A DNA stretch of 64,000 bases from Mobula hypostoma (lineage: Eukaryota): assembly GCF_963921235.1 (NCBI RefSeq), contig NC_086107.1, positions 114,268,001 to 114,332,000 of the forward strand, read 5' to 3'. This document shows positions 1,190 to 62,797 of this stretch, piece by piece; positions within the stretch are counted from its first letter, which is position 1; every line of letters begins with the position of its first letter. The position numbers were made by a program, and so were the translations under genes. Under the pieces are notes generated by a model, which searched no databases, was not told the DNA's origin, and saw only the letters and a program-made list of their open reading frames with translations.

Positions 1190-1625
1190 GCACTCGTTGT
1201 TTGAGCGTTGTTCGCAGAGAAAATAAAAATCTTAGATCTTTTGAAAAGTGGCATGTCGCTTGCCGAAGTGGGCCGTAAGGTCGGTAAGGACGAATGGAGC
1301 ATTCGCACAATAAAGCAGAAAGAAGCTGAAATTCGTGGAAGTGTTAGTGCTACCCCGACAACGGCAGAAGTGGTCTCTCTGGTTTGTGATAAAGTGCTTG
1401 CAAAGACTGAGAAAGCATTAAGTGTGCGGCTGGAGGTCATGTCACAGAAGCATATCCTTGTTGATGGCAAAATTATGCGTGAAAAAGCACTTAGCCTCTA
1501 TGAACACTACTGTGAGGGGGTTGAGGAGAGCGAGAGGAAGGAGTTTAAGGCTAGTAAGGGACGGCTGGCTAGCTATGTAAAGCGCTACAGCCTCAAGAAA
1601 TTAAAGATCACGGGAGAATCGACAT
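1190..1625 (+). mobile_element. Tigger/pogo (Tc1-mariner) transposase N-terminal fragment inside hAT A
   Basis: KIKILDLLKSGMSLAEVGRKVG...REKALSLYE...FKASKG...LKITGES matches the CENP-B-type HTH domains; it ends before the DDE domain. Confidence 0.8.
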
Positions 1626-2059
1626 GGCTGATGTACCAAGTATCCTATTATGGAGCAGTTCACGCTTGAAGTCTCTCAGAAAAAAAATTGTTGATCACAA
1701 ACTATCAAAAGCTCACACTGCTGCTCTAAGTGTTGAAAATATAGCTCGTGAAGAAGAAGGAGGATTATGTGACACCATGAATGCTTCGCATCCAAAGGTT
1801 CGAATTTTCGTTCTGCATATTATTTAGCTCAAAATGATCACTCTGATCACTTTGGCTTATTGGAACTTCAAAAAAAATAGGATTGACATTGGAATTGGAC
1901 TGCATTCCTGCACTACTGCTACATGGATAATTAATCACATAGCCATTAATATGAAAAAGAACATTTTCAGGCATATCAAGCAGATAAATGGCAAATTTTC
2001 TATTCTCATTGATGATTCAACAAGCCTGAGCATTAAGACTGCCCTAATAACCATATAAC

Positions 2060-5000
2060 AATTACAGGACGGAAACAGGCCATCTCGGCCCTTCTAGTCC
2101 GTGCTGAACTCTTACTCTCACCTCATCCCACCGACCTGCACTCAGCCCATAACCCTCCATTCCTTTCCTGTCCATATATCTATCCAATTTAACTTTAAAT
2201 GACAACATCGAACCTGCCTCAACCACTTCTGCTAGAAGCTCGTTCCACACAGCTACCACTCTCTACCCCCTCATGTTACCCCTAAACTTCTGCCCTTTAA
2301 CTCTCAACTCATGTCCTCTTGTTTGAATCTCCCCCACTCTCAATGGAAAAAGCCTATCCACGTCAACTCTATCTATCCCCCTCATAATTTTAAACACCTC
2401 TATCAAGTCCCCCCTCAACCTTCTATGCTCCAAAGAATAAAAACCCAACTTGTTTAACCTTTCTCTGTAATTTAGGAGATGAAACCCAGGTAACATTCTA
2501 GTAAATCTTCTCTTACTCTCTCTATTTTGTTGACAACTTTCCTATAATTCGGTGACCAAAACTGTACACAATACTCCAAATTTGGTCTCACCAATGCCTT
2601 GTACAATTTCAACATTACATCCCAACTCCTATACTCAATGCTCTGATTTATAAAGGCCAGTATACCAAAAGCTTTCATCACCACCCTATCCACATGAGAT
2701 TCCACCTTCAGGGAACTATGCACCATTATTCCTAGATCCCTCTACTGCATTCTTCAATGCCCTACCATTTACCATGTATGTCCTATTTTGATTAGTCCTA
2801 CCAAAATGTAGCACCTCACATTTATCAGTATTAAACTCCATCTGCCATCTTTCAGCTCACTCTTCTAACTGGCCTAAATCTCTCTGCAAGCTTTGAAAAC
2901 CTACTTCATTACCCACAATTCCACCTATCTTAGTATCATCTGCATACTTACTCATCCAATTTGCCACCCCATCATCCAGATCATTAATGTATATGACAAA
3001 CAACATTGGACCCAGTACAGATCCCTGAGGCACACCACTAGACACTGGCCTCCAATCTGACACACAGTTATCCACCACTACTCTCTGGCGTCTCCCATCC
3101 AGCCACTGCTGAATCCATTTTATTACTTCAATATTAATACCTAAAGGTTGAACCTTCCTCACTAACCTTCCATGTGAAACCTTGTCAAAGGCCTTACTGA
3201 AGTCCATATAGACAACATCCACCGCTTTACCCTTGTCAACTTTCCTAGTAACCTTTTCAAAAAATTCAATAAAATTTGTCAAACATGACTTTCCATGCAC
3301 AAATCCATGTTGACTATTCCTAATCAGACCCTGTCTATCCAGATAATTATATATACCATCTCTAAGAATACTTTCCATCAATTTACCCACCACTGACGTC
3401 AAACTCACTGGCCAATAATTGCTAGGTTTACTCTTAGAACCCTTTTTAAACCAATGGAACCACATGAGCAATACGCCAATCCTCCAGCACCATCCCCGTT
3501 TCTAATGACATTTGAAATATTTCTGTCAGAGCCCCTGCTATTTCCACACTAACTTCCCTCAAGGTCGTAGGGAAAATCCTGTCAGGACCCGGAGACTTAT
3601 CCACTTTTATATTCCTTAAAAGCACCAGTACTTCCTCTTCTTTAATCATCATAGTTTCCATTACTTACCTACCTGTTTCCCTTATCTTACAGAATTCAAA
3701 ATCTTTCTCCTTAGCGAATACCAAAGAAAAGAAATTGTTCAGAATCTCCCCCCATCTCTTTTGGCTCCTCACATAGCTGTCCACTCTGATTCTCTAAGGG
3801 ACCAATTTTATCCCTCACTATCCCTTTGCTATTAATATAACTGTAGAAACCCTTGGGATTTATTTTCACCTTACTTGCCAAAGCAACCTCATATCTTCTT
3901 TTAGCTTTTCTAATTCCTTTCTTAAGATTCTTTTTACATTCTTTATATTCCTCAAGCACCTCATTTACTCCATGCTGCCTATATTTATTGTAGTTATCTC
4001 TCCTTTTCCAAACCAAGTTTCCAATATCCCTTGAAAACCATGGCTCTCTCAAATTTTTAACCCTTCCTTTCAACCGGAACATAAAGATTCTGTACCCTCA
4101 AAATTTCACCTTTAAATGACCTCCATTTCTCTATTACATTCTACCCGCAAAACAAATTGTCCCAATTCACTCCTTCTAAATCCTTTTGCATCTCCTTAAA
4201 GTTAGCCTTACTCCAATCAAAAATCTGAACCCTGGGTCCAGACCTATCCTTCTCCATAATTATATTGAAACTAATAGCATTGTGATCACTGGACCCAAAA
4301 TGCTCCCCAACACAAACCTCCGTCACCTGACCTATCTCATTCCCTAACAGGAGATCCAACACTGCCCCTTCTCTAGTTGGTACCTCTATGTATTGCTGCA
4401 AAAAACAATCCTGCACACATTTTACAAACTCCAAACCATCCAGCCCTTTTACAGTATGGGCTTCCCAGTCTATGTGTGGAAAATTAAAATCTCCCACAAT
4501 CACAACCTTGTGCTTACTACAAATATCTGCTATCTCCTTACAAATTTGCTCCTCCAATTCTCTCTCCCCATTTGGTGGTCTATAATACACCCCTATAAGT
4601 GTTACTACACCTTTCCCATTCCTCAATTCCACCCCGGTAGCCTCCCTAGACGAGCCCTCTAATTTATCCTGCCAGAGCACCGCTGTAATATTTTCTCTGA
4701 CAAGCAATGCAACACCTCCCCCTCTTGTCCCTCCGATTCTATCACAACTGAAGCAATTAAACCCAGGAATATTTAGTTGCCAATCACACCCCTCCTGTAA
4801 CCATGTTTCACTAATAGCTACCACATCATACTTCCAGGTATCAATCCATGCTTCAAGCTCATCCACCTTTCTTACAATGCTCCTAGCATTAAATTAAATG
4901 CATTTAAGAAATGTTCCACCTCTTACTCTCTGCTTAACACTAAGGGTGCCAACAACTTTACTATTTTCTTTTTCTTCCTTCTCCCCTACATCTGTTCCTA

Positions 5001-5262
5001 CACTCTGGTTCCCCTCCCCCCTCGTATCTAGTTTAAATCCACTGGAGCCTCTCTAGCAAACCTAATTGCAAGAATATTTGTCCCCCTCCAGTTCAGATGA
5101 AAACCATCCCGCCGGAACAGGCCCCACCTTCCCTGGAAAACTGCTCAATTATCTATAAATCTGAAGCCCTCCCTCCAGCACCATGTCTTCAGCCACATGT
5201 TGATCTGTGGTATCTTACTATTTCTAAACCCGCCTGCACATGGCACGGGTAGCAATCCTGAG
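2060..5262 (-). mobile_element. CR1 LINE (5'-truncated; decayed ORF2 endonuclease + RT) inserted in hAT A transposase
   Basis: ORFs 4141-4866 (ISETWL, YYRPP, GDFN, SDH) and 2857-3471 (DFSKAFD, GVPQGSVLGP, YADD); typical CR1 3' end. The hAT reading frame resumes on either side. Confidence 0.93.
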
Positions 5263-5445
5263 ATTTAAAATGTGAAAGTGATAAGGAAGGGGATCCCTAT
5301 TTTATGTTTTTAGATCTAATTGAACTGCCTGATCAGAAAGCTGCAACTATTGCTAAGCATCTATTGAACTGTCTCAATAACCATGGGTTTGATGACTGTT
5401 ACTTCAAACAGAACCTTGTAGCATTTGCTAGTGATGGGGTGAGCA

Positions 5446-7255
5446 CTTTAGGCAGGGCTAGGCTGGGCTGCGGCCCAGGGGCCCGAGCTGCAGAGGGGCC
5501 CAAAATAGGTCGCTATCATCATGGCGGACAAAAAAAAATACGAGAGTGGAGCACAGAATAGAAACAAGAAACAAGAAAAAGAGGACCGTGAGAAAGAAGG
5601 GTTAAAAAAGTCATTGAAATTGACAGAATTTTTTAAACCTGTTCTCGATGATGCAGCAGTACCATCGCTCTTGTCACAGTCCGAGACCGGTGGACAAACG
5701 GAGACTTGTTCAACAGCTAGCGCTAGCACCAGTGTTAGCACAGGACCACCGTCCCTGCCACAGTCAGCAGCTAACGCTGAAGAGGCAGAGAGCATGACTT
5801 TGAGATTCCTGACCACAGAGGCCTCCGAATAACCAAGTCCGGCTGCCATTAACGTTAACATTACCGCTACTGAGGATCCTTACAGCACTGATCCTACTCG
5901 CACGGGAAAGGAAATGTTAGATGATTCAGTCCGAGCGTACTGGGCTACGAAAGGGCCGGAGTCCTGCCAGAATAAGGATGTGGAATATCAAAGCTTTGGA
6001 ACGAGTATACAAACAGCAGAGACGTTTTTTCTCCGAATTTCACTTCAAACGCAGGCTCGTAAATGGTCAGTACATATCAAGGCAATTCCTCTTATATTCC
6101 CCTTCCACCGGCTGTGTGGTTTGTTTTGCATGCTGCATCTTCAGTGATGGTAACTGTCAGTCCATCTTCGAAACTGGCTTTAGCGACTGGAAACATGCCG
6201 CTGAACGCATAGGAGAGCATGAAAATAGCGAACACCACAGGAAAACGATACTGACCTACGTTACACTAGCGTCTGACAGCGGAAGAATAGATACAGAACT
6301 ACAAAAACAGTTCGAGTCAGAGTGTGTCTACTGGACCGACGTATTGAGGAGAGTGTTGGTGGTTGTGAAGTTTTTGGTCGAGAGGGGACGGGCTATCCGA
6401 GGCTCCAGTGACATATTTGGCAGGTCTGATAATGGCAACTACATAGGCTCAGATCCACAATGGGACAGGACAGGCTGAGTCATCTTACTCTGATGTCACT
6501 TGAAAGTGATCTTGTTCAGAAACTGGATTTTAGTGATCTGTTCCAGGACATTGCTGCAAAGAAATCCAGAAGAACTGGGCTTTAATTTTGAAAAACAAGC
6601 ATCTGACTTTGAAAATATCTAGGCTTGTGTGTCAGCGCTGTTCCTGTTTTTGGGGCAATAGGCTAATAGTTGACTGTTTACAATCTTAGTAAGTAATAAG
6701 TGGTCTTTACTCTGCAAGCCACACAGTACAGCAATAGGTTAGTATGTGCTAGATCTCATTTTTCAAAAGGATTGTTGGAGTATTGTCAAGTTTCCTAGTT
6801 TGCCATAGTGCCATCTCTCTTGGCCTTTTTGTCTCTCATTTGTGTTTCACTTTCTCAGAACGCACGGTTGAGAAAAATACCGAGATAAAAATGCTTTGGC
6901 ATAGTTTGAGAAATAAGGCCTTGCCGCAATAGCTGATTAAAGATTTAAGATTGGGTATATCAAGCTTTGTCTCCCTCATAACTTTACTAAGCCAACTAAG
7001 CCTAGGTCAATTTTTGAGTGCTTTAGATGCTGTCCTTCAAACTAAGGATCTGCATTACTTTCTGTCCTCCCTCTTAAGGCCTGTAAGTTTACAGCCTACG
7101 TATTGTACTCAACCAATGTCTTGATCCACAGCTTTGATATTTAGACCAGTACCACCTTTGCTCTTGTTCTTGCCTTTTTTTTGCTTGCTACAGCAGCATT
7201 TTACCGTGTCGGCAGGGGCCCGTCAGGGCCTCCAGCCCCACTAAATCCGGCTCTG
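5446..7255 (+). mobile_element. hAT transposon B, copy 1 (ZMYM1/TTF-zinc-finger type, internally deleted)
   Basis: LLYSPSTGCVVCFACCIF...GFSDWKH...HENSEHH...RG...NGNY fused directly to the transposase C-terminus. TSD GGTGAGCA (5438-5445) / GGTGAGCG (7256-7263). Right end AAATCCGGCTCTG; left TIR lacks about 10 nt. Confidence 0.88.
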
Positions 7256-8225
7256 GGTGAGCGTAACACTTGGTGTCAAATCTGGTGTTGCTACAGTTCT
7301 CAAGGAACATTACCCTGATGTGATAATTTAGCACTGTCTTAATCACAGATTAGAACTTGCAGTAGGTGGTTCGGTGAGAGAAGTTCATGGAATAAATCAT
7401 TTCCAATCATTTATGGACAAATTGTACTCTGTTTACAGTAGATCACCTCTAAATCAAAAGGAACTGTCTGAATGTGCCTCTCAACTAGAACAACAAATTT
7501 GAAATATAGGCTGTGTTCTGGGCACCAGGTGGGTAGCTAGCTCATTTCCAACAGTTTCAGCAGTGCGGCAAAATTATGAAGCACTGTGTTTTCGTTTTGA
7601 AAAAGCAATGAAGGATGAAACAAGATCTGGAAGTGACAGAAAAACCTATGAAGGTCTGTTGAAAAGACTCTCTTCAGAATAGTTTCTATTGGATTCACAT
7701 TGCATGAACTTGGTTTACTGTCAGAGTGTTTACAGAAATGCAGTACTACGATTGTTTATGCTGACAAACTGATCCAACAGAGCATAAGATCACCGCATGG
7801 AGTGAAAGAGCAACCTGGTACAAAAACTCTAGAAGCTCAAGAGGCAGTTGAAAAGGGGAAGTTTGGAGAAACTACCTTAACAAGCAACAACAAAATTGTC
7901 TCCATTAATTATCTACAGTTTCTTACTAGACTTATAAACAATTTGCAGCACTGTATGTTCAAGGCAACATACTTGAAAAACAAACTTCTCAACTTCAAAG
8001 TATATATAAATCCCTGCTAAATGAAATGTGTGCCCTTGATAAAGATAACGGGCCTGCTGAAACACTGCCTAATTATGGAGAAGCTGCAATATCATCTCTG
8101 TAAGAGGTTTAAGCTTTCTTCCTCCTCTGTAATAAATGCCTTCAGAGATTATGTGGAGGATCAGGGACACCACATCTCCCAAGATTTACGCTTGTTACTT
8201 GAGCTGTTCACAAGTTATTCCGATT

Positions 8226-8586
8226 AGTAAACACAAAATACTCTGCAGATGCTGGGGTCAAAGCAACACTCACAGCACGCTGGAGGAACTCAGCAGGTCG
8301 GGCAGCATCCGTGGAAATGAACAGTCAATGCCTCATTCTACTAGCCATTTTCCTTCTTCATCTTTCCTGTCTATCCCCTCCCCCACCCCTTTATCTTTCC
8401 CCTTACTGGTTTTTCACCTGGAACCTACCAGCCTTCTCCTTCCCACCCTCCCCCCATCTCTTTATAGGGCCCCTGCTCCCTCCCTCTTCAGTCCTGATGA
8501 AGGGTTCCGGCCCGAAACGTTGACTGTTCATTTCCACGGATGCTGCCCAACCTGCTGAGTTCCCCCAGCGCGTTGTGAGTGTTGCT
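8226..8586 (+). mobile_element. Penelope-like terminal fragment with inverted ends
   Basis: GCTGGAGGAACTCAGCAGG...GGCAGCATCCGTGGAAATGAACAGTCAA and its reverse complement flank a pyrimidine-rich core; same terminus as the GIY-YIG element at 20750. Confidence 0.8.
8489..8526 (+). ncRNA. Minimal type I hammerhead ribozyme motif (Penelope-associated)
   Basis: CAGTC-CTGATGA-AGGGTTCCGGCCC-GAAA-CGTT-GACTG: stem I CAGTC/GACTG, intact core, stem II GGG/CCC, palindromic stem III ACGT, GUU cleavage triplet. Confidence 0.7.
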
Positions 8587-9304
8587 TATTCCTATTAGTA
8601 CTGCTGAGTGTGAGAGAGGAATCAGTCACATGAACTTGATAATAACAACAACACGCTCAAGAATTCTCATAAATCACCTATCAGCACTTATGTTTGTTAA
8701 ACTACATGGACCTCCTCTAGTTCAGTGGAATCCTGAGCCGTACGTCACATCATGGCTGCGGTACCACAGATCAGCAGATGACAGCAGGACAAGAGTTGCT
8801 TCACACCCCCAAACACACATTATGCCAGACCCTTTGTGAAAATTAGTGTGAAACTTCTCATTGGTGGCATTTGGCAAGTAGGTAATTATTTTTAAATTGG
8901 TAAAATACATGATTACCATCTTTTTCTTTACCTGCTTGGTAATTATATTTTATGATAATTAGTGAGTCATCATCATAGTTTGTCACACCAGACAGCCAGC
9001 CGCCACCCTAGTGTTGTTTGGTTGATGTTGAGCAGGTCAGTGTACCTGCTCATTACATGAATGGGGCAAGGACATGAAATGAGCAGGTAAACAAATTGGG
9101 TGTGGCATATATAGAGGGAAGGAGCACCTTACGCCTCCTTTGGTAGAGATGTATCTCCACCCCACCACCCATGCCCAGCAGAAGGCAATGACTAACAACT
9201 TCAGTTAAAAAAAAATGCCAAGAGCAATCACAGTCAAAGACTACGATTACCTCCGTCACACGACAAGGCAAATAGCAATGATGATGACATTGTCCCTATG
9301 GGTT

Positions 9305-9695
9305 CATCATCATAGCTTGTCACACCAGACAGCCAGTCACTCTAGTGTTGTTTGGTTGATGTTGAGCAGGTCAGTGTCAGCTAAGTCAGGTGAGAGTGGG
9401 CAGTTGCACAGAACGTGTTCAATGTTCTGCACGCTTTCGCCACACCCACGGGATTCGCTGGTCTTTAAACCCCACTTCACCATATTGTCTCCCGTCCTAC
9501 AAACCCCCGCTCTCGCTCTGTTGAGAGTGCAGCACTTCCGTCTGTCAAGCCGTGCCCCGTCTGGTAACATTTCTGTGGGGTCTTGCACTGTATTGTTTGG
9601 TGGGGTTCTGGCTTCTGTTTGTTGCCAGAGGTCAATCCTGTATGTCTGGGGGGATGTTCCGTGCAGTAGTTCCTCCACTGTAGCAAAGCTTTTCC
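9305..9695 (-). mobile_element. Vingi/Ingi-like LINE 3' fragment
   Basis: TLNRARAGVCRTGDNMVKWGL..S..CGESVQNIEHVLCNCP resembles the C-terminal CCHC knuckle; (ATG)n tail; 3' end partly repeated at ~8967-9045. Confidence 0.55.
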
Positions 9696-10958: not shown

Positions 10959-11138
10959 AGTCATATATATACGTCACACCCAATTTGTGTACCTGCTCGT
11001 TACATGAATGGGGCAAAGACATGAAATGTTCAGGTAAAGAAATTGGGTGTAACATATATAGAGAGGAGATACAGGAAATGGCAAGCATTTTGTCAGCTCC
11101 GGCACCTAAAAAATTAGCACTGCGCCCCTGGGGGTAAC

Positions 11139-11473: not shown

Positions 11474-11630
11474 ATGCGAACGGAGCCGGGTCTGGTGTAC
11501 ATGGTGACTGGTGGTTCCGGCTTCCTCGGCCGCCACCTGGTGCGCCTTCTGGCCGAACCTGAGCAGGACATCGCAGAGATCCGCGTGTTTGACCCGAATG
11601 TGGACCCGGACCTGGGGTCTCTGAATACCG
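11474..11630 (+). CDS. hsd3b7: hsd3b7 coding exon 1 (Rossmann NAD-binding motif)
   Basis: ATG at 11474 gives MRTEPGLVYMVTGGSGFLGRHLVRLL...EIRVFD (extended-SDR TGGxGFLG motif plus acidic residue after beta-2). Donor G|GTAAGG at 11631; 157 nt, phase 1. Confidence 0.9.
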
Positions 11631-13321: not shown

Positions 13322-13868
13322 AGTTAACGAGTTTACGGCGCTAGCCAGGCGTCAGAGAACATTTCGGGAGTGCAATGTTATGTGTTTCACTGGAACGGGG
13401 CTGCACGAGGACATACCCGATCAAAACTTTTCCATGGACAGCTTCCAGACCGTTCGGGCTGACCGGAAGTGCACTGAGAGCGGTAAGCGTTAAGGAGTTG
13501 GGTGCTTACTGTTCTGGTTAACAACAGATGATGCAATCCAGGTCATATTACGATCGAGGAACGTGTTTGTAGACTGGATATTGAACTTTTTACTGTTGGA
13601 CTTCGGCCATATTGCACTGAGATACAACACTGGGCGGCACGGGAGGTCGTTCCTGCCTGTGGCCATTGAACTTGCAGCTCCTCCTGTGGAGGGTCAGACA
13701 CCCTGAGCCAATAGACTGGTCCTGGACTTATTTTCCATCTGGCATAGTTTGCATTTTGTTGTTTGATTGTTTGTGGTTTTCCTATTGCTATATTTACGCT
13801 CTATTCTTGGTTGGTGCGGCTGTAATGAAACCCAATTTCCCTCGGGATCAATAAAGTATATCTATCTT
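13322..13868 (+). mobile_element. Internally deleted Rex1-derived non-autonomous element (endonuclease start fused to 3' end), 5'-truncated
   Basis: RECNVMCFTGTGLH...VRADR joined directly to the 3' UTR ending GATCAATAAAGTATATCTATCT; inserted in a CR1 3' fragment. Confidence 0.7.
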
Positions 13869-14422
13869 TAAGAGACTCCTAGATAGGCACATGGATGAAA
13901 GAAAAACAGAGGGCTATGTAGGAGGGGAGGGTTAGATTGATCTTGGAGTAGGTTAGAAGGTCAGCACAACGTTATGGCCCTGTACTGTTCTGTTCTAATG
14001 GAGGGAGAATGAGGTGATGTGAGGGAGAATGGAGGGGAGAGGGGAGGGGAGATGGAGAATAATGAGGGAGGAGATGTGTGGCGAGAAGGGGTGATGGAGA
14101 ATAGAGAGGAGGGGAGGGAGAGTGGAGGGGAAAGAGTGGATAGGATAGGAGATGGGAGATGGAGAACAGGAAGGGGCTTCATTCCCAAAGCAAAGCCAGA
14201 GGCTGTCAGAAACACTCAGCAGGTTAGGCAGCCTCCGTGGGAATGGAAACGGTGCTGCTGATACTTTCTGGATTTGACCTAACATTCCCAGTCCTGAAAC
14301 ACCAATTCCTACCCTGTCCTTGGACGTTGCTGGCATTCCCTGTACCTTTCGAGGAGAAGGTTTCATGTTCATTAATGTGGAACGTCAGGTATATTGACAA
14401 GTGCAGGTCTGCACAGGTGCAG

Positions 14423-14542
14423 TGTAAAACCTGCCTGCAGCAACTTCACAGGTATGCTGCCAATGTAAAACCTACCTGCAGCAACTTCACAGGTATGCTG
14501 CCAATGTAAAACCTGCCTGCAGCAGCTTCACAGGTATGCTGC
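14423..14542. repeat. 41-bp tandem repeat, about 3 copies
   Basis: TGTAAAACCTGCCTGCAGCAACTTCACAGGTATGCTGCCAA x3, ending at the left TSD of the 14548 insertion. Confidence 0.9.
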
Positions 14543-14547
14543 ATAAG

Positions 14548-15989
14548 CAGGGATGGACTTCAGGCAGGGCTAGGCTGGGCTGCGGCCCAGGGGCCCGAGC
14601 TGCAGAGGGGCCCAAAATAGGTAGCTATCATCATGGCGGACAAAAAAAAATATGAGAGTGGAGCACAGAAAAGAAACAAGAAAAAGAGGACCGTGAGAAA
14701 GAAGCATTAAAAAAGACATTGAAATTGACAGAATTTTTTAAACCTGTTCTCGATGATGCAGCAGTACCATCGCTCTTGTCACAGTCCGAGACCGGTGGAC
14801 AAATGGAGACTTGTTCAACAGCTAGCGCTAGCACCAGTGTTAGCACAGGACCACCGTCCTTGCCACAGTCAGCAGCTAACGCTGAAGAGGCAGAGAGCAT
14901 GACTTTGGGATTCCCGACCACAGAGGCCTCCGAACAACCAAGTCGGGCTGCCACTAATGTTAACATTACCGCTACTGAGGATCCTTACAGCACTGATCCT
15001 GCTCGCACGGGAAAGGAAATGTTAGATGATTCATTCCGAGTGTACTGGGCTAAGAAAGGGCTGGAGTCCTGCCAGAATAAGAATGTGGATATCAAAGCTT
15101 TGGAACGAGTATACAAACAGCAGAGATGTTTTTTCTCCAAATTTCACTTCAAACGCAGGCTCGTAAATGGTGAGTACATATCACGGCAATTCCTCTTATA
15201 TTCCCCTTCCACCGGCTGTGTGTTTTGTTTTGCATGCCGCATCTTCAGTGATGGTAACTGTCAGTCCATCTTCGAAACTGGCTTTAGCGACTGGAAACAT
15301 GGCGCTGAGCACATAGGAGAGCGTGGAAAACAAGCATCTGACTTTGAAAATATCTAGGCTTGTGTGTCAGTGCTGTTCCTGTTTTTGGGGCAATAGGCTA
15401 ATAGTTGACTGTTTACAATCTTAGTAAGTAATAAGTGGTCTTTACTCTGCAAGCCACACAGTACAGCAATAGGTTAGTATGTGCTGGATCTCATTTTTCA
15501 AAAGGATTGTTGGAGTATTGTCAAGTTTCCTAGTTTGCCATAGTGCCATCTCTCGTGGCCTTTTTGTCTCTCATTTGTGTTTCACTTTCTCAGAACACAC
15601 GGTTGAGAAAAATACCGAGTTAAAAATGCTTTGGCATAGTTTGAGAAATAAGGCCTCGCAGCAATAGCTGAATAAAGATTTAAGATTGGGTATATCAAGC
15701 TTCGTCTCCCTCATAACTTTACTAAGCCAACTAAGCCTAGGTCAATTTTTGAGTGCTTTAGATGCTGTCCTTCAAACTAAGAATCTGCATTACTTTCTGT
15801 CTTCCCTCTTAAGGCCTGTAAGTTTACAGCCTACGTATTGTACTAAACCAATGTCTTGGTCCACAGCTTTGATATTTAGACCAGTACGAACTTTGCTCTT
15901 GTTCTTGCCTTTTTTTGCTTGCTACAGCAGCATTTTACCGTGTCGGCAGGGGCCCGTAAGGGCCTCCAGCCCCACTAAATCCGGCTCTG
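14548..15989 (+). mobile_element. hAT transposon B, copy 2 (extra ~370-bp deletion near 15322)
   Basis: Starts CAGGGATGGACTTCAGG after TGCATAAG; ends CCGGCTCTG followed by GGTGAGCG; homologous to 5446-7255. Confidence 0.88.
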
Positions 15990-18049
15990 GGTGAGCGTAA
16001 CACTTGGTGTCAAATCTGGTGTTGCTACAGTTCTCAAGGAACATTACCCTGATGTGATAATTTAGCACTGTCTTAATCACAGATTAGAACTTGCAGTAGG
16101 TGGTTCGGTGAGAGAAGTTCATGGAATAAATCATTTCCAATCATTTATGGACAAATTGTACTCTGTTTACAGTAGATCACCTCTAAATCAAAAGGAACTG
16201 TCTGAACGTGCCTCTCAACTAGAACAACAAATTTGAAATATAGGCTGTGTTCTGGGCACCAGGTGGGTAGCTAGCTCATTTCCAACAGTTTCAGCAGTGC
16301 GGCAAAATTATGAAGCACTGTGTTTTCGTTTTGAAAAAGCAATGAAGGATGAAACAAGATCTGGAAGTGACAGAAAAACCTATGAAGGTCTGTTGAAAAG
16401 ACTCTCTTCAGAATAGTTTCTATTGGATTCACATTGTATGAACTTGGTTTACTGTCAGAGTGTTTACAGAAATGCAGTACTACGATTGTTTATGCTGACA
16501 AACTGATCCAACAGAGCATAAGATCACTGCATGGAGTGAAAGAGCAACCTGGTACAAAAACTCTAGAAGCTCAAGAGGCAGTTGAAAAGGGGAAGTTTGG
16601 AGAAACTACCTTAACAAGCAACAACAAAATTGTCTCCATTAATTATCTACAGTTTCTTCCTAGACTTATAAACAATTTGCAGCACTGTATGTTCAAGGCA
16701 ACATACTTGAAAAACAAACTTCTCAACTTCAAAGTATATATAAATCCCTGCTAAATGAAATGTGTGCCCTTGATAAAGATAACGGGCCTGCTGAAACACT
16801 GCCTAATTATGGAGAAGCTGCAATATCATCTCTGTAAGAGGTTTAAGCTTTCTTCCTCCTCTGTAATAAATGCCTTCAGAGATTATGTGGAGGATCAGGG
16901 ACACCACATCTCCCAAGATTTACGCTTGTTACTTGAGCTGTTCACAAGTTATTCCGATTAGTAAACACAAAATACTCTGCAGATGCTGGGGTCAAAGCAA
17001 CACTCACAGCACGCTGGAGGAACTCAGCAGGTCTGGCAGCATCCGTGGAAATGAACAGTCAATGCCTCATTCTACTACCCATTTTCCTTCTTCATCTTTC
17101 CTGTCTATCCCCTCCCCCACCCCTTTATCTTTCCCCTTACTGGTTTTTCACCTGGAACCTACCAGCCTTCTCCTTCCCACCCTCCCCCCATCTCTTTATA
17201 GGGCCCCTGCTCCCTCCCTCTTCAGTCCTGATGAAGGGTTCCGGCCCGAAACGTTGACTGTTCATTTCCACGGATGCTGCCCAAACTGCTGAGTTCCCCC
17301 AGCGCGTTGTGAGTGTTGCTTATTCCTATTAGTACTGCTGAGTGTGAGAGAGGAATCAGTCACATGAACTTGATAATAACAACAACACGCTCAAGAATTC
17401 TCATAAATCACCTATCAGCACTTATGTTTGTTAAACTACATGGACCTCCGCTAGTTCAGTGGAATCCTGAGCCGTACGTCACATCATGGCTGCGGTACCA
17501 CAGATCAACGGATGACAGCAGGACAAGAGTTGCTTCACACCCCCAAACACACATTATGCCAGACCCTTTGTGAAAATTAGTGTGAAACTTCTCATTGGTG
17601 GCATTTGGCAAGTAGGTAATTATTTTTAAATTGGTAAAATTCATGATTACCATCTTTTTCTTTACCTGCTTGGTAATTATATTTTATGATAATTAGTGAG
17701 TCATCATCATAGTTTGTCACACCAGACAGCCAGCCGCCACCCTAGTATTGTTTGGTTGATGTTGAGCAGGTCAGTGTACCCTGCTCATTACATGAATGGG
17801 GCAAGGACATGAAATGAGCAGGTAAACAAATTGGGTGTGGCATATATAGAGGGAAGGAGCACCTTACGCCTCCTTTGGTAGAGATGTATCTCCACCCCGC
17901 CACCCATGCCCAGCAGAAGGCAATGACTAACAACTTCAGTTAAAAAAAAAATGCCAAGAGCAATCACAGTCAAAGACTACGATTACCTCCGTCACACGAC
18001 AAGGCAAATAGCAATGATGATGACATTGTCCCTATGGGTTCATCATCAT
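15990..18049 (+). repeat. Near-identical duplicate of 7256-9313 (3' half of hAT A, including its Penelope insert)
   Basis: Colinear match; ORF pairs 7700/16434, 8021/16755, 8136/16870 and 8579/17313 are almost identical. Confidence 0.95.
17223..17260 (+). ncRNA. Minimal type I hammerhead ribozyme motif (duplicate copy, sense strand of hsd3b7 intron 1)
   Basis: Identical to 8489-8526. Confidence 0.7.
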
Positions 18050-18582
18050 TTTTCACCTCCTACTCTCTGTATATCACTAACGGTGCAAACAACTTTACTA
18101 TTTTCTTTTTCTTCCTTCTCCCCTACATCTGTTCCTACACTCTGGTTCCCCTCCCCCCTCGTATCTAGTTTAAATCCACTGGAGCCTCTCTAGCAAACCT
18201 AATTGCAAGAATATTTGTCCCCCTCCAGTTCAGATGAAAACCATCCCGTCGGAACAGGTCCCACCTTCCCTGGAAAACTGCTCAATTATCTATAAATCTG
18301 AAGCCCTCCCTCCAGCACCATGTCTTCAGCCACATGTTGATCTGCGGTATCTTACTATTTCTAAACCCGCCTGCACATGGCACGGGTAGCAATCCTGAGA
18401 TTTAAAATGTGAAAGTGATAAGGAAGGGGATCCCTATTTTATGTTTTTAGATCGAATTGAACTGCCTGATCAGAAAGCTGCAATTATTGCTAAGCATCTA
18501 TTGAACTGTCTCAATAACCATGGGTTTGATGACTGTTACTTCAAACAGAACCTTGTAGCATTTGCTAGTGATGGGGTGAGCA
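18050..18582 (+). repeat. Duplicate of 4913-5445 (CR1 5' piece plus hAT A middle)
   Basis: Colinear match including the CR1/hAT A junction GCAATCCTGAGATTTAAAATGTG; ends in GGTGAGCA. Confidence 0.93.
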
Positions 18583-20398
18583 CAGGGCCAGACTTCAGGC
18601 AGGGCTAGGCTGGGCTGCGGCCCAGGGGCCCAAAATAGGTAGCTATCATCATGGCGGACAAAAAAAAATACGAGAGTGGAGCACAGAATAGAAACAAGAA
18701 ACAAGAAAAAGAGGACCGTGAGAAAGAAGGGTTAAAAAAGTCATTGAAATTGACAGAATTTTTTAAACCTGTTCTCGATGATGCAGCAGTACCATCGCTC
18801 TTGTCACAGTCCGAGACCGGTGGACAAACGGAGACTTGTTCAACAGCTAGCGCTAGCACCAGTGTTAGCACAGGACCACCGTCCCTGCCACAGTCAGCAG
18901 CTAACGCTGAAGAGGCAGAGAGCATGACTTTGAGATTCCTGACCACAGAGGCCTCCGAATAACCAAGTCCGGCTGCCATTAACGTTAACATTACCGCTAC
19001 TGAGGATCCTTACAGCACTGATCCTACTCGCACGGGAAAGGAAATGTTAGATGATTCAGTCCGAGCGTACTGGGCTACGAAAGGGCCGGAGTCCTGCCAG
19101 AATAAGGATGTGGAATATCAAAGCTTTGGAACGAGTATACAAACAGCAGAGACGTTTTTTCTCCGAATTTCACTTCAAACGCAGGCTCGTAAATGGTCAG
19201 TACATATCAAGGCAATTCCTCTTATATTCCCCTTCCACCGGCTGTGTGTTTTGTTTTGCATGCTGCATCTTCAGTGATGGTAACTGTCAGTCCATCTTCG
19301 AAACTGGCTTTAGCGACTGGAAACATGCCGCTGAACGCATAGGAGAGCATGAAAATAGCGAACACCACAGGAAAACGATACTGACCTACGTTACACTAGC
19401 GTCTGACAGCGGAAGAATAGATACAGAACTACAAAAACAGTTCGAGTCAGAGTGTGTCTACTGGACCGACGTATTGAGGAGAGTGTTGGTGGTTGTGAAG
19501 TTTTTGGTCGAGAGGGGACGGGCTATCCGAGGCTCCAGTGACATATTTGGCAGGTCTGATAATGGCAACTACATAGGCTCAGATCCACAATGGGACAGGA
19601 CAGGCTGAGTCATCTTACTCTGATGTCACTTGAAAGTGATCTTGTTCAGAAACTGGATTTTAGTGATCTGTTCCAGGACATTGCTGCAAAGAAATCCAGA
19701 AGAACTGGGCTTTAATTTTGAAAAACAAGCATCTGACTTTGAAAATATCTAGGCTTGTGTGTCAGCGCTGTTCCTGTTTTTGGGGCAATAGGCTAATAGT
19801 TGACTGTTTGCAATCTTAGTAAGTAATAAGTGGTCTTTACTCTGCAAGCCACACAGTACAGCAATAGGTTAGTATGTGCTGGATCTCATTTTTCAAAAGG
19901 ATTGTTGGAGTATTGTCAAGTTTCCTAGTTTGCCATAGTGCCATCTCTCGTGGCCTTTTTGTCTCTCATTTGTGTTTCACTTTCTCAGAACACACGGTTG
20001 AGAAAAATACCGAGTTAAAAATGCTTTGGCATAGTTTGAGAAATAAGGCCTCGCAGCAATAGCTGATTAAAGATTTAAGATTGGGTATATCAAGCTTCGT
20101 CTCCCTCATAACTTTACTAAGCCAACTAAGCCTAGGTCAATTTTTGAGTGCTTTAGATGCTGTCCTTCAAACTAAGAATCTGCATTACTTTCTGTCCTCC
20201 CTCTTAAGGCCTTTAAGTTTACAGCCTACGTATTGTACTAAACCAATGTCTTGGTCCACAGCTTTGATATTTAGACCAGTACGAACTTTGCTCTTGTTCT
20301 TGCCTTTTTTTGCTTGCTACAGCAGCATTTTACCGTGTCGGCAGGGGCCCATCAGGGCCTCCAGCCCAGGGCCCCCGGCCCCACTAAATCCGGCCTTG
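18583..20398 (+). mobile_element. hAT transposon B, copy 3
   Basis: Intact TIRs CAGGGCCAGACT / AATCCGGCCTTG; preceded by GGTGAGCA and followed by TGCATAAG (20399-20406); ORFs nearly identical to copy 1. Confidence 0.9.
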
Positions 20399-20747
20399 TG
20401 CATAAGGTAAACTGCATTCACATAAATTAAACACAAATTATACCCTGTTTTTACAAGAAAGAACAGATGTTAAAAATTCATTGCGCCAAGTGGAAAGGGT
20501 TGCCCTGCTGAGGTACTGATTAGGCTTGTGTTGGCTGCTCGGGAACTGAACCGTTGAAGGGGAGTGGCTTGTTGGATCCCGATGCTTTTGCGATCTGAAA
20601 GTTCTTCAGTAGCCAACTAACTCACTCCCTGTTACACCGCTGGTGTTCAGGGCAGCAATGAAGGTCCTCCATCTCTGGTGGTGTTCCGGGCTTCCTTCGT
20701 TGTGTCAGTAGCCTCCTTTCAGAAGCTACGTGAGGCCCACTCACTGC

Positions 20748-28700: not shown

Positions 28701-28965
28701 AACACCACCTCTCCACTTCTTTTATTTCTGTGTTTTTTCCACTAATTTTAACTTTACATAAAATACTTAGTTCAGGTAGGAGCCAAAACCCTCAACCATC
28801 TGTTCATACATAAAAACTGGAGGTTCGGTTCCCTATTTCTGTCATGGGCTTGACTGCCTTGGCCTTCATCATTGTCATCCTCACATGAGTTTCTAGAGGT
28901 TGCTGTAGGGGCCACAACATGTCTGTCTCATAATTCCTCCGAGTTTGGATGTTGGTGCTGCCACA

Positions 28966-30163
28966 GAGGCCTGTCCAATGTAGGAGGCGTCTCCCGAGGA
29001 GGCCTGTCCAATGTAGGGGGCGTCTCCCGAGGAGGCCTGTCCAATGTAAGGGGCGTTTCCCGAGGAGGCCTGTCCAATGTAGGGGGCGTCTCCCGAGGAG
29101 GCCTGTCCAATGTAGGGGGCGTTTCCCGAGGAGGCCTGTCCAATGTAGGGGGCGTCTCCCGAGGAGGCCTGTCCAATGTAGGGGGCGTCTCCCGAGGAGG
29201 CCTGTCCAATGTAGGGGGCGTCTCCCGAGGAGGCCTGTCCAATGTAGGGGGCGTTTCGCGAGGAGGCCTGTCCAATGTAGGGGGCGTTTCGCGAGGAGGC
29301 CTGTCCAATGTAGGGGGCGTTTCGCGAGGAGGCCTGTCCAATGTAGGGGGCGTTTCGCGAGGAGGCCTGTCCAATATAGGGGGCGTTTCCCGAAGAGGCC
29401 TGTCCAATGTAGGGGGCGTTTCGCGAGGAGGCCTGTCCAATGTAGGGGGCGTTTCGCGAGGAGACCTGTCCAATATAGGGGGCGTTTCGCGAGGAGGCCT
29501 GTCCAATGTAAGGGGCGTTTCCCGAGGAGGACTGTCCAATGTAGGGGGCGTTTCCCGAGGAGGACTGTCCAATGTAGGGGGCGTTTCCCGAGGAGGACTG
29601 TCCAATGTAGGGGGCGTTTCCCGAGGAGGCCTGTCCAATGTAGGGGGCGTTTCGCGAGGAGGCCTGTCCAATGTAGGGGGCGTTTCGTGAGGAGGCCTGT
29701 CCAATGTAGGGGGCGTTTCGCGAGGAGGCCTGTCCAATGTAGGGGGCGTTTCCCGAAGAGGCCTGTCCAATGTAGGGGGCGTTTCGCGAGGAGGCCTGTC
29801 CAATGTAGGGGGCGTTTCGCGAGGAGGCCTGTCCAATATAGGGGGCGTTTCGCGAGGAGGCCTGTCCAATGTAAGGGGCGTTTCCCGAGGAGGCCTGTCC
29901 AATGTAGGGGGCGTTTCCCGAGGAGGCCTGTCCAATGTAGGGGGCGTTTCCCGAGGAGGCCTGTCCAATGTAGGGGGCGTTTCGCGAGGAGGCCTGTCCA
30001 ATATAGGGGGCGTTTCGCGAGGAGGCCTGTCCAATGTAGGGGGCGTTTCGCGAGGAGGACTGTCCAATGTAGGGGGCGTTTCCCGAGGAGGACTGTCCAA
30101 TGTAGGGGGCGTTTCGCGAGGAGGCCTGTCCAATGTAGGGGGCGTTTCGCGAGGAGGACTGTC
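28966..30163. repeat. 33-bp GC/CpG-rich minisatellite, about 36 copies
   Basis: Unit GAGGCCTGTCCAATGTAGGGGGCGTTTCGCGAG head-to-tail with no spacers; explains the 11-aa periodic ORFs. Confidence 0.97.
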
Positions 30164-35884: not shown

Positions 35885-38800
35885 TTTGGGCGGTAGCATG
35901 CGTCCGCAGCCGTTTCTCTCTTGGTTCTGGGGTCTGGGGCATTAGCGTGAGCTTTGCACTTAATTACAGCAATTTGCTTGGGCGACTGCACAGCTTGTAG
36001 CAATTTGTTATGAGACACGTGCTGAATGGGTCTACCCGCAGACGCAGTGAACCCCAATGATTCAAAACCATGTAGCACCCCGAAGGCATACCTAGAGTCT
36101 GTACAGACGTTTGCTGTGTACCCATCGTGATAGAGCTAAAAGCTCCGCTGCCTGACCCTTGGGGAAATTTCAAAGGCAGTCGCCATCTCATAGCTTGCCA
36201 ATAGGGTGTGATCGTTAGGCTTGCAAGAAGAGCCGTCCGTAAAGAAGATTAAATCTGGGGTACAGTGGATAGTGACGTAACTATCTCTACTACTTTTACA
36301 CGGTCATGGGTTTCTGAGGACTCCGTCATAGGAACCAGGGTAGTCAGGTTCAGCAACGCACATCAAAGTTGCTTATGAACTCAGCAGGTCAAGCAGCATC
36401 TATAGGAAGAGGTCCAGTCGACGTTTCAGGCCGAGACCCTTTGTCTGAAACGTCGACTGTACCTCTTCCTAGAGATGCTGCCTGGCCTGCTGCGTTCACC
36501 AGCAACTTTAATGTGCGTTGCTTGAATTCCCAGCATCTGCAGAATTCCTGTTGTTTGTAGCCAGGTTGAGTGCGGGTGCTCTTTGAAAAGTCAAATTCGA
36601 CTTGTTGAGTAGGGTGGCTTGGTATCCCGCGCTGCGGGCGGCGGAGCAGGAGGTGTCCGTACCGTGCAGGCTTGGTCGAGTGTTAACGGGGCAGCCTTCC
36701 CGGCCGCTACCACCGCCCTTAAACATCCTGACGCTCCTCTAACCACCGGAGGCAATAGGGTGGAATAATACCACACTGGTTTTAGTAAGCCGCCATGTTC
36801 TTGGGTTAATACTGCCCACTTGCGAAACCCACGTACATCTGGGACGGCTTGCTGTATTCGGGCAATCCTCAGTTCTTTGGATTGTATCAGATGTACCTGG
36901 GTTACTGCGACTTGTAAGGCAGCACCAAAGATGCGGTATTCGGGTACCCAACTTCGGCAGTTATTCGTCATTCCCAGGAAAGCTACCATCACCAATCCTA
37001 CATGATTAGCGTAGGGGTCCCTGTCTATGGAATTCAAGTCGGAACGTAACGCAGTTGCTGCTGATACCCTTGTATCTGGTCCATAATAAGTCACCCCTCT
37101 TTAGTTAGGTGACGTTCTGCTTTCTAATACCCGTCTCACCATAGCCCCCAAGACTTTACGCTTAAAAGGTTTCCCTGCCAGCGAGACACGGGACGCTGAA
37201 TGTGGGGCCCCGAGAAAGAGTTCCTAGTGTTTCCTTTTGAGCTGAACCTCAGTTGCTATTCCCTCAGGGCCAAAATTGCCCTACCCGATAGAAATATTAG
37301 CCCCCTCTTGCCTTCATGCAGATTCACTTGGTTACTATCATCGCCATCGGGATCTGTATCCCAATGTAGTGCAGTTGCTAGTTTACAAGTTCCGATCAAA
37401 TCAGCCACGAATTCTCCAACTTTAATGGCGACTTCTATTCGCAGCCAGAACCTGCCCAGAGTTTTCCCCAACTTGCCAGCGGTAGAGAGCGGCTGGACTT
37501 TCTGTTTGCTCCGTTTTATAGTGCGGAGCTCAGATAATCTATTCTCAGGGATTTCAAGGTACAAACCTTCGGAGGTACAATGAATAACGGCATCTAATTT
37601 ACAGAGTGCTTTGCGTCCAAGCGAATTAAGAGGCGAGTTCTCTGCTATAACGAATGTTTCATCAGTCAGAAATTTCCCCAGCTTTACTTCAACGGACTCG
37701 GACAGGGGTTCTATCATAGAAATTCTGGCTATTACTACGGTCTTAATACTTTGTCTGCCTTTTCGTCTTGCCTCTTCAGATCGGCCAGTTTAAAAGAATA
37801 TGCTCCCTCTGGTCAGAGACAGTTTATAAATGATTGCGCTGTCAGTGGGTTCTTTCCTGCTAGGGGTAAGACCATAAGGCATAGGAGCAGAATTAGGCCA
37901 TTCAGCCCGTCGAGTCTGCTCCGCCATTCCACCATGGCTGATCCTGGATCCCACTCAGCCCCATACACCCATCTTCTCGTCCTATCCTTTGATGCCCTGA
38001 CTGATCAGGAAACAATCAGCTTCCGCCTTAAGTGTATGCACGGACTTGGCCTCCAGCGCACTCCGGGACAGAGCGTTCCACAGACTTACTACTCTTTGGC
38101 TAAAAAAGAAATCCTACTTACTTCTGTTCTAAAGGGTCGCCCCTCAATTTTGAGGCTGTGCTGGATACCCCTGCCATAGGAAACTTCCTCTCCTCATCCA
38201 CCCTATCTAGTCCTTTCAACATTCAATAGGTTTCAATGAGATCTCCCTCGCATACTTCTAAATTCCAGTGAGTACAGGCCCGAAGCTGCCAAACGCTCCT
38301 CATATGTTGCTGTTGCTAATGGGTTGTTTCCTGCTGGGGCTACTTCTGCGCAAGCTTCCCAAGTGTCTTTAAACTGGGCAATAAAATCAGTAATAACCTC
38401 CCCCTTCTTTTGGAGACATTTAGTTACTTCTCCAAAGTCGCCGAGTTACCTGGCTCCTGCAAGAGTGGCGTTTTTTTGCTCTTGTTCAGCCAATCATTCA
38501 TTCCATCAGTAGGACTCCTGTCATCAATCTCCTCATTCCCTGGGTGGAGGGGCCCTGTCCCCTTGGGGCATATTGGGAAATCCTGTTCTAACTCCCGGCC
38601 AGGAAGTTCCATAGGCTACCCTGAGCAATGCCTGGACATCCCCAGGTAATAGATTAAAAACTTGGCAAGTCTGGACCGACCAGCTGTGGAAAGCTACCGG
38701 TTTTCTTCGCTCATCATGCTGCGTGCCTCCGCCGGGATCCAGGGGTTATGTATCAGGACATTCCCTACCATTATGCAAGGAGCCTGGAACAGAGTCTAAG

Positions 38801-44215: not shown

Positions 44216-44975
44216 AGATAGATAGGTATACTTTATTGATCCCGACGGAAATTGGGTTTCGTTACAGCCACACCAACCAAGAACAGAGCGTAAATATAGC
44301 AATACCAAAACCACAAACAATCAAACAATGAAATGCAAACTATGCCAGATGGAAAATCAGTCCAGGACCAGTCTATTGGCGCAGGGTGTCTGACCCTCCA
44401 TGGGAGGAGCTGCACGTTCGATGGCCACAGGCAGGAACGACCTCCCGTGCCGCCCAGTGTTGTATCTCGGTGGAATATGGCCAAAGTCCAACAGTAAAAA
44501 GTTCAATATCCGGTCTACAAACACGTTCCTCGATCGTAATATGACCCGGATTGCATCATCTGTTGTCAACCAGAACAGCAAGCCCCCAACTCCTTTACGC
44601 TTACTGCCCTCAGTGCACTTCCGGTCAGCCCGAACGGTCTGGAAGTCATCCATGGAGAAGTTTTGATCGGGTATGTCCTCGTGCAGCCCCGTTCCAGTGA
44701 AACATGTGACACTGCACTCCCGAAATGTTCTCTGACGCCTGGCTAGTGCCGTGAACTCATCCATTTTATCACCCACCGAACTCCTCTTCTCCATAAGTCT
44801 CTGTTGTCTCGACCCAGTCCTCTTTCCTCGCCTTTGTGATCCCCTCTGCATTCTCTGTGTGTTTTCCTCCAGATTTCAGCAAGGGTGTCCGCCGCTCTGC
44901 TCGCTAAACCAGCCGGCATTAGCGCAAACAGCTGGTCCCTGGAATACACAATGCGACCTTGCTTCTGTCCCGCGT
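44216..44975 (-). mobile_element. Second, longer copy of the internally deleted Rex1-derived element
   Basis: Reverse complement matches 13322-13868 across the same deletion junction; extra 5' part YSRDQLFAL...NKMDE-like. Confidence 0.72.
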
Positions 44976-52410: not shown

Positions 52411-52996
52411 GTGTGTGTGGTGTGTGGGGGTATGTCTTAATTTGTTTGTGTATGTCTCAGTTTTTGCGGGTGTGGGTGTGTATATACATGAGATTTAGCT
52501 CCTGAATTTTCACACAGCCAACGCACCCAAACAATTGATGCCTCAAACTGAGTTTCTCTCTCCTTTCAACGCCCAAACTCTCCTTCTCTCTCTCTTTCAG
52601 CGAAGCAAACTTGATGGACTGAATGGCCTAATTCTGCTCCTATGTCTTTCTCTCCCTCTTTCTCTGCCGCTCTCCTCCATCCTCTCTCCCCTTTTCCTTC
52701 AGTCTTTTTTCCCTCTCCCTCTGTAACTTTCCACCTTTCACTTTCCTTCCCTGTCTCTCTCACTGTCTCCCTCTGTCTGGCCTCCTCTCTCTGACTCCCT
52801 CCACCCCTCTCTCTTCCTCTCTCAATCTCGTCCCATCCCTCTCTCTCCCCCTCCCGTCACCCACCGCCGTGCTCTCGCACTTCTCTCTCTGCCTGTCCAG
52901 TCGCAAGCTGTCGCTCCGCTCCCTCCCCCCGCCCCCCACACCACATTTCGGGTTTTCACCCTCCCTCCCTAAATTAACGCCCCCTTTCCTTTTCAG

Positions 52997-53152
52997 AGAA
53001 GTTGCAGGTGAAATTCATCCAGGGGAATATTGTTGATGCAGCAAGTGTACTGGAGGCAGCGAGGGGCGTGGACCTCATCATCCACACAGCAGGGCTTGTC
53101 GACGTGTGGATGAAACACCCTTCCAAAAGGATCTGGGCCGTGAACTACCAAG
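52997..53152 (+). CDS. hsd3b7: hsd3b7 coding exon 2
   Basis: Polypyrimidine tract and TTTCAG acceptor; (E)KLQVKFIQGNIVDAASVLEAARGVDLIIHTAGLVDVWMKHPSKRIWAVNYQ; donor G|GTAATG. 156 nt, phase-compatible with exon 1. Confidence 0.93.
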
Positions 53153-57693: not shown

Positions 57694-57824
57694 GTGAGCG
57701 TCAGCCACGAGGAAAGAGGGCAATGGTTGTCCCAGGACAGGAACTGGAATTCAGTGAGTCTGTCTCTGACCTCTCCACCTGGGACTGACCCACAATGGGA
57801 GCACCGTGAACACGTCTTATCTCA

Positions 57825-59260: not shown

Positions 59261-59450
59261 AGCCCTGTGTGCATTTCTAGTCACTGAATATCATGTTGAG
59301 AGCTCTGTGCTCATTCCAGACCCTGATCCTGTGGACAGTCCATTCGTTTACAGGAAACAGACACGATTAGTCTGCAGCCTGTGAGCACTTAAAGGGATCG
59401 TTCACACCTTGCCCACTTCCTCACTGTCCCTCTACTCTCCACCTCGCCAG

Positions 59451-62600: not shown

Positions 62601-62797
62601 TAGCTAGAGAAATAGAAAGAGAGAGATAGATAGATAAAGATAGACAGAGAGATAGATATAGATAGAAATAGAGAGAGGGTGAGATGGATAGAGAGAGTGA
62701 TAAAGATAGATGAAAGAGGGGGTGGAGAGAGATGAGGGTCTGGGGGAGTGAAGGAGGGTCCGTACATGAACTGACAGAGTTTCTGAAACTCTCTCAG

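Follow-up and report, generated by a model that had tools for sequence, protein, structure and literature searches.

How does a segment of DNA come to be copied, with its blocks in permuted order, into another copy of the transposable element at its own centre, so that the two sites seem to have exchanged target-site duplications (TSDs)? This question is raised by a 64,000-nt stretch of Mobula hypostoma DNA (hereafter, the window), in which a rotated duplicate built around a hAT DNA transposon, element B, sits in the 41-kb first intron of a host gene of the 3Beta_HSD family. We call the upstream donor copy of element B D, the resident copy at the intron site R, and the two intronic elements, which we compared with D in a three-way alignment, H1 and H2. 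The layout was checked by self-BLAST and by direct reading of the sequence, and comprises the following features.

4911-5437: B, source copy, consisting of the 5' part of a CR1-like long interspersed nuclear element (LINE; minus strand, to about 5262) and a piece of an older element, hAT A (self-BLAST, alignment)
5438-5445: donor-site TSD, left copy, GGTGAGCA; the hAT A frame reads across it (sequence comparison)
5446-7255, plus strand: D, donor hAT B copy with an internal deletion; its left terminal inverted repeat (TIR) lacks the first 10 bp (three-way alignment)
7256-7263: donor-site TSD, right copy, GGTGAGCG (sequence comparison)
7264-9313, plus strand: C, source copy, consisting of the remainder of the decayed hAT A transposase, an insert resembling a short interspersed nuclear element, and 3' repeat pieces (alignment, Pfam)
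14540-14547: acceptor-site TSD, left copy, TGCATAAG (sequence comparison)
14548-15989, plus strand: H1, hybrid, of R type to at least 15890 and of D type from 15956-15968 onward (three-way alignment)
15990-15997: donor right TSD, inner copy, GGTGAGCG (sequence comparison)
15998-18049, plus strand: C', copy of C with 13 substitutions and 2 gaps in 2050 bp (alignment)
18050-18087: junction patch, collinear with 4913-4950, from which 8 of 38 sites differ (alignment)
18088-18574: B', copy of B with 5 substitutions in 487 bp (alignment)
18575-18582: donor left TSD, inner copy, GGTGAGCA (sequence comparison)
18583-20398, plus strand: H2, hybrid, of D type to about 19720-19766 and of R type from 19881 onward (three-way alignment)
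19881-20304, plus strand: shared tract in H2, with its twin in H1 at 15486-15909; H1 and H2 agree against D at 12 substitutions and 1 indel
20399-20406: acceptor-site TSD, right copy, TGCATAAG; this junction is found in organism B too (read contigs)

Upstream, the blocks run B (4911-5437), GGTGAGCA, D (5446-7255), GGTGAGCG, C (7264-9313); in the intron they run TGCATAAG-H1-GGTGAGCG-C'/B'-GGTGAGCA-H2-TGCATAAG. Self-BLAST pairs 4911-7238 with 18048-20367 (97.5% identity), 6589-9313 with 15324-18049 (98.8%) and 5445-6225 with 14557-15329 (95.0%), and agrees with the direct reading that C precedes B at a new internal junction. The rotated-copy structure that a sequence-only reading had first described is thereby confirmed. 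Sequence comparison places the acceptor TSD at the outer ends of the unit (TGCATAAG at 14540 and 20399) and the donor TSD at the inner ends (GGTGAGCA at 5438 and 18575, GGTGAGCG at 7256 and 15990), such that each intronic hAT carries one TSD from each site, the swap that the same reading had reported. Every TSD copy adjoins an element end, and the chance of a perfect 8-mer match at two fixed ends is, by arithmetic, 4^-8. The unit between the outer TSDs, previously put at 5.85 kb with outer TIRs and a perfect 8-bp TSD, measures 5851 bp, its TIRs being degenerate and agreeing at 7 of the first 11 nt; the duplicated source interval, put at about 4.4 kb (4911-9313), measures 4403 bp. The copy lies about 9 kb from its source, donor and acceptor are co-oriented, and the cargo between the hybrids consists of repeat debris only, with no gene. 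Two other occurrences of TGCATAAG, at 35670 and 40324, were considered as empty-site paralogues and rejected, their contexts being unrelated. By eye, about three tandem copies of a unit of about 37 bp occupy 14420-14547, ending at the left TSD of the resident element.

Element B has two independent 8-bp TSDs and short TIRs, and its ends start with a CAG-G-CC-GA-like sequence. Its frame is TTF-type/DUF4371-like (Atlas features, 0.95, run on the H2 copy), a domain that we take to be tied to hAT transposases; the hAT B fragments gave no Pfam match. The three hAT B copies are not alike: about 364 bp are missing from H1, and H2 has lost 17 bp close to its left end and is 14 bp longer at its right end. 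The 10-bp loss from the left TIR of D shows 2-nt microhomology, and H2 retains those 10 bp, the copy thus preserving the older end. At 7 of the 20 hAT B sites listed, D and R carry the same non-majority letter, which would make them sister copies, perhaps arising from a 9-kb local hop.

The alignment shows that the intronic elements are mosaics. D 5446-6750 holds 33 variable sites, of which 29 set H1 apart and 3 set D apart; H2 follows D here (4 of 1288 positions differ). Over D 6751-7175, it is D that is odd, at 12 of 15 sites and by one indel (H1 at 2), a change of odd copy with a Fisher P of 9e-7. In the last 80 bp (D 7176-7255), H1 follows D, and H2 is odd at 3 of 4 sites and by a 14-bp indel. 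H1 and H2 are reciprocal R/D hybrids: H1 runs from R into D, and H2 from D into R. The switch in H1 falls within 15891-15968 and that in H2 within about 19720-19880, or from 19350 if the H1 deletion came later. The two switches do not coincide, and at least 425 bp are of the same type in both hybrids and unlike D. The plain single crossover implied earlier does not survive this comparison, as the 425-bp tract is common to both hybrids and absent from the donor.

The simplest reading of this tract is that it represents R sequence, continuous with the R left part in H1 and the R right end in H2. The family majority in read contigs was listed for 40 of 307 variable sites; at 19881 and 19950, both in the tract, it is the D letter, indicating that the letters shared by H1 and H2 there are derived and did not come from the present D. 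In addition, D retains five non-majority letters common to H1 and H2 in 19814-20094, which argues against overwriting of D by an unrelated family member. R-type sequence in both hybrids suggests that the incoming DNA was the partner that broke. Had R been broken and mended from D, D sequence would have been doubled; a doubled R fits a gapped incoming molecule mended on R, a fork return or a later H1-H2 conversion. A single site within the tract, 20067, where the same derived letter stands in D and H2, hints at patchy heteroduplex repair.

The ages of the parts differ between what was copied and what was resident. The copied parts differ from their partners at 13/2050 (C/C'), 5/487 (B/B'), 4/1288 (D/H2-left) and 3/424 (H1/H2 tract) positions; they are homogeneous (P = 0.32), with a pooled value of 25/4249, or 0.59% (confidence interval 0.38-0.87). 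R differs from D by 3.9% on the left (30/766, D/H1-left) and by 3.1-3.3% in the tract. Contigs from 4 of 23 public read runs were compared with 15985-20720, with H1 and the left TSD excluded; the read tables are dominated by repeat families. Organism A contigs are identical to the window over 20346-20657 and 20352-20660. Two contigs of organism B, a related organism, over 20366-20658 show 10 and 11 differences in 293 gap-free positions (3.4-3.8%), and bridge the element end, the TSD and the flank, with 33 letters on the element side. This divergence exceeds the pooled duplication age (P = 5e-5). R's right junction thus predates a split of about 3.5% and is some six times as old as the duplication; the outer TSD is therefore old rather than a product of moving the whole unit. 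Together, these comparisons indicate that TGCATAAG is R's own original TSD, the organism B junction being the strongest evidence. The earlier proposal of recombination into a resident hAT copy gains support from both the reciprocal hybrids and this older outer TSD.

We hypothesize that a D-centred 4.4-kb segment was circularised and then inserted, by homologous ends-in integration, into the older resident R, an account in which we place about even confidence. The ends at 9313, at the foot of a hairpin, and near 4950 would have been joined, the B end having first been extended by about 38 nt on a diverged CR1-like template. The circle would next have acquired a break or gap within its hAT copy and paired with R, which lies in the same orientation and is 96-97% identical. 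R would have served as the repair template over at least 425 bp, leaving R letters in both products, and a rotated copy of the flanks would end up enclosed by a reciprocal pair of R/D hybrids. In yeast gap repair, ends-in integration of a gapped plasmid gives a comparable outcome. No transposase step would be needed, because TGCATAAG is taken to be R's original TSD. On this account, the unit mimics a composite transposon but was not made by transposition. It had also been proposed that the unit could move as one; given TIRs that match at 7 of 11 positions, frames that end after 103 (D), 25 (H1) and 103 (H2) codons, and an event about six times younger than the D/R split, it is probably immobile.

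The new junction retains traces of how the ends may have been joined. One end coincides with the following feature.

9278-9313: perfect 10-bp inverted repeat with a 16-nt loop, the right foot of which is the exact end of the copied segment

This hairpin has a z of about -3.2 to -3.5 and is one of 12 of its kind in the window, duplicates included; the exact match of breakpoint to hairpin foot, a roughly 1-in-1000 coincidence, was noticed post hoc. On the other side of the junction, 18050-18087 differs from 4913-4950 at 8 of 38 sites, compared with 5 differences over the other 487 bp of B'. The probability of at least 8 differences in 38 is 6e-11 at 0.59% divergence, 1e-4 at 4%, and 0.08-0.2 at 12-15%. 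Going by these rates alone, the patch was probably copied from another CR1-like copy at 12-20% divergence; it may otherwise reflect error-prone synthesis. One paralogous contig aligns through the patch, with 22 differences in 179. Elsewhere in the window, the patch has no better ungapped match and no exact 12-mer, and a 23-nt degenerate motif covering both patch versions recovered 0 stretches in metagenome contigs. The neighbouring LINE endonuclease domain (4144-4893, minus strand; Pfam PF03372, E 9e-16) gave 4 hits among 40 candidates in a protein search directed at the endonuclease start, the two named relatives among the four being from Narcine bancroftii and Hypanus sabinus, which makes a ray the likely source of the window; in the four hits the upstream residues are too diverged to polarise the patch. 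The sequence-only reading had placed about 2 nt of AT microhomology at 18048-18050. With 8 mismatches to the source in its first 38 nt, the joint is no clean fusion of C to B, and the upstream copy gives no basis for reading microhomology there. The idea that the two flanking LINE copies on the same strand recombined to form the circle was discarded, as these are 65% identical and do not overlap the junction.

A direct duplication of 74-77 bp (8967-9043 and 9304-9377, 92% identical) brackets a 260-bp insert composed of half of an element resembling a miniature inverted-repeat transposable element (MITE) and repeat pieces. The new breakpoint at 9313 falls 10 bp inside the second copy, so that this site has seemingly been rearranged twice.

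Several points weigh against a circle. A free circle is invisible in the product, and serial template switching, an alternative for which the sequence-only reading had left room, would yield the same sequence; the patch represents at least one extra template switch and suits a replicative model equally well. The polarity of the tract is drawn from parsimony and 2 of 13 sites, CpG polarity being uninformative (1 versus 2) and contradicted by the family letter at 6035, and the shared tract could stem from later H1-H2 conversion. Organism B shows R's right junction only, not a single intact R. No contig crosses 18049/18050 among the 15 of 373 joints and 32 of about 230,000 pieces listed, which is evidence neither way. 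Finally, a contig over 17879-18049 extends 18 letters past 18049 unlike the window, a divergence that would suit either a contig in which both copies are collapsed or a sample lacking the insertion. We consider it rather unlikely, though a serious contender, that one replicative event without a free circle, by break-induced replication or by fork stalling plus template switching (FoSTeS) with serial switches, produced the locus. A broken fork end in R would have invaded D and replicated B, with a brief switch to another CR1-like copy; after priming anew at 9313, the foot of the hairpin, it would have gone on through C and the end of D and re-entered R about 0.5 kb behind its start. The duplicated R tract and the patch would thus be explained in one pass, and the 9-kb distance and co-orientation of donor and acceptor, like the single age of all parts, are in keeping with it. 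FoSTeS/microhomology-mediated break-induced replication is invoked for insertions with duplicated acceptor DNA flanks (PMC9132208), and 79 of 80 human AB-to-BA permuted insertions are co-oriented with their source (bioRxiv 10.64898/2026.09.03.749254), a count that we read as compatible with local switching. However, this route depends on four successive switches in one particular order, among them a jump whose landing point lets synthesis run back into D and then R, and with a circle that order comes at no cost.

The remaining explanations fare less well. A stepwise history of tandem duplication (creating C/B), R-D unequal crossover (H1) and later D-R deletion (H2), or of crossover followed by H1-H2 conversion, would use only ordinary non-allelic recombination, and independent crossovers need not coincide, leaving the 425-bp offset without a special cause. 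Nevertheless, it places three events inside a 0.6% divergence window in which the parts are homogeneous (P = 0.32), its intermediate would duplicate host exon 1, and self-BLAST reveals no remnant array in the window; we regard it as improbable. A true transposition product, made while the family was active either by alternative (sister-chromatid or reversed-end) transposition of D or as a macrotransposon jump from a tandem array, with later gene conversion bringing most of it back to the upstream sequence, appears quite improbable. Maize composite insertions do share the layout, a microhomology join and an 8-bp TSD (PMC4270019), and D and R, with their 7 shared non-majority letters among the 20 listed sites, are likely sisters. 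Yet transposition predicts elements derived wholly from the donor locus, outer ends included, and a TSD as young as the flanks, whereas H1-left is 3.9% from D, the right end of H2 differs from D, and the right TSD junction occurs in organism B at 3.4-3.8% divergence versus 0.59%. A rescue would require two long conversions ending less than 40 bp from the junction, plus H1-H2 conversion. Least probable of all, in our estimate, is an assembly artefact in which a second haplotype of the upstream block was misplaced inside the intronic element. The 0.6% divergence is within the range of allelic differences, and both the lack of a junction-spanning contig among the rows listed and the contig with C' letters that continues past 18049 unlike the window would suit it. 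An assembler would not, however, create reciprocal hybrids that share a tract, nor would it permute the blocks or introduce a 38-nt patch of diverged sequence. Moreover, organism A yields two error-free contigs with C'-specific letters, at 17478-17672 and 17879-18049, with depths of 24.8 and 19.6 versus 13.7 and 8.4 in the right flank, an about two-fold excess that is weak evidence, with one pair per run and a single sample. No further copy of the unit was found elsewhere in the window by self-BLAST.

The proposed integration of a circle into a resident element has a published parallel. At human NPIPB9, in apes, a circle was reinserted at a resident SVA retrotransposon by homeologous recombination (PMC9132208, Fig. 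4), and that paper asks whether such homology-driven reinsertion was a one-off in apes. Both loci show permuted donor flanks and two reciprocal hybrids, with the TSD of one site outermost and that of the other inside. Unlike the SVA case, the element here is a TIR DNA transposon, hence the composite-transposon mimicry; the duplicate is 4.4 kb, lies 9 kb from its source, and has no gene and no known descendants; and it bears two scars, the offset conversion tract and the patch at the junction. Duplications with permuted blocks are frequent, but no long homology is involved in their integration (PMC7450558; bioRxiv 10.64898/2026.09.03.749254); for human cSDPs, homologous recombination was ruled out in the cases described (PMC7450558), and circular-intermediate duplications at cattle KIT and tilapia vasa are cited in the same two papers. 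Our locus resembles these in its reversed block order, new internal junction and local same-orientation insertion; theirs, in contrast, integrate without homology or with microhomology.

Other known systems share the anatomy in part. Maize Ac/Ds composite insertions (PMC4270019) have outer hAT ends, an 8-bp TSD, an element-flank/flank-element order and an end-joined centre, but they are products of transposase whose TSD is new and whose ends come from the donor, whereas here the TSD predates the duplication and the outer parts come from another copy. The IS26 pseudo-compound transposon (PMC8722046) arises when a translocatable unit, a circle bearing one element, joins a resident element, so that passenger DNA ends up between two direct copies in what only resembles a compound transposon. 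IS26 is bacterial, however, and also uses a transposase route at element ends; our locus has its switches within the elements, which are dead, and lacks a cargo gene. By this analogy, the unit would work like an IS26-type pseudo-compound transposon without being a member of that class. Single-copy Pack-TIRs (PMC8277862) offer an animal TIR element of an inactive family holding nearby DNA without transposition. Pack-TIR gap filling differs from our locus, which has a permuted filler, two copies of the element and, on either side, a tract of acceptor type (assigned to R by parsimony). Gap filling starts at a break in the acceptor and, we infer, should not duplicate acceptor sequence, so that its polarity would be opposite to that of the present case. 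A DNA-transposon case with reciprocal hybrids was not found among the papers listed by searches of the main texts of a mostly open-access literature; the case tables of PMC8277862 might hold one. It is a tentative and on balance doubtful proposition that "ends-in gene targeting" took place here naturally in the germline of a vertebrate, a chromosomal circle having broken, undergone gap repair on a dead DNA transposon and integrated, as a eukaryotic counterpart of the IS26 pseudo-compound transposon.

The setting of the duplicate is rich in repeats. The host gene begins upstream of it with the following feature.

11474-11630, plus strand: first coding exon of the 3Beta_HSD-family host gene (Pfam 3Beta_HSD profile positions 1-37 at 11474-11629)

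Profile positions 42-94 match at about 52993-53151, the next exon, and positions 165-219 at 62792-62968. The profile matches show the 3Beta_HSD family only; we presume the gene to be HSD3B7(-like), which encodes a steroid enzyme. B and C are the two halves of the older hAT A, split by D: we read them as one element because its frame continues across the TSD and because hAT A family copies without the D insert give the joint 18573->15989 in 3 of 4 read runs. The C region has a Dimer_Tnp_hAT match (Pfam, E 0.0026) under the curated cut-off. A short palindromic MITE-like element lies at 10966-11063, about 400 bp upstream of the host start codon, and half of it recurs at 9040-9116 and 17774-17851. 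The same intron holds inverted copies of a 539-bp element (13329-13867 and 44220-44758, 93% identical). A tandem array at 28965-30163 (33/66-bp period, about 95% identity) has frames open for 400-480 codons on both strands. Minisatellite arrays occupy 57760-59289 (about 52-53-bp period) and 63120-63931 (mixed-unit array) in later host introns. Open frames at 1205-1669 (plus strand) and 37256-37789 (minus strand) may be pieces of a pogo/Tigger-type transposase and a retroelement protease, respectively, which they resemble.

The direct biological weight of the event is low, as only repeat debris was copied, into a 41-kb intron. Its anatomy has already been published for SVA in apes (PMC9132208), and the kind is known but rarely documented; by comparison with that account, the Mobula locus adds a second case at base resolution, from a vertebrate far removed from apes and from a different class of element. 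It also serves as a caution that outer TIRs and a perfect TSD are no proof that a unit transposed. If the circle account is true, the offset conversion tract would be a readable signature of the broken partner, and could thereby let a genome survey distinguish repair after a donor break from repair after an acceptor break. If such events are, in addition, common where hundreds of near-identical hAT copies exist, then some apparent composite transposons and Pack-TIRs would be recombination products, and dead DNA transposons would act as landing pads for circles.

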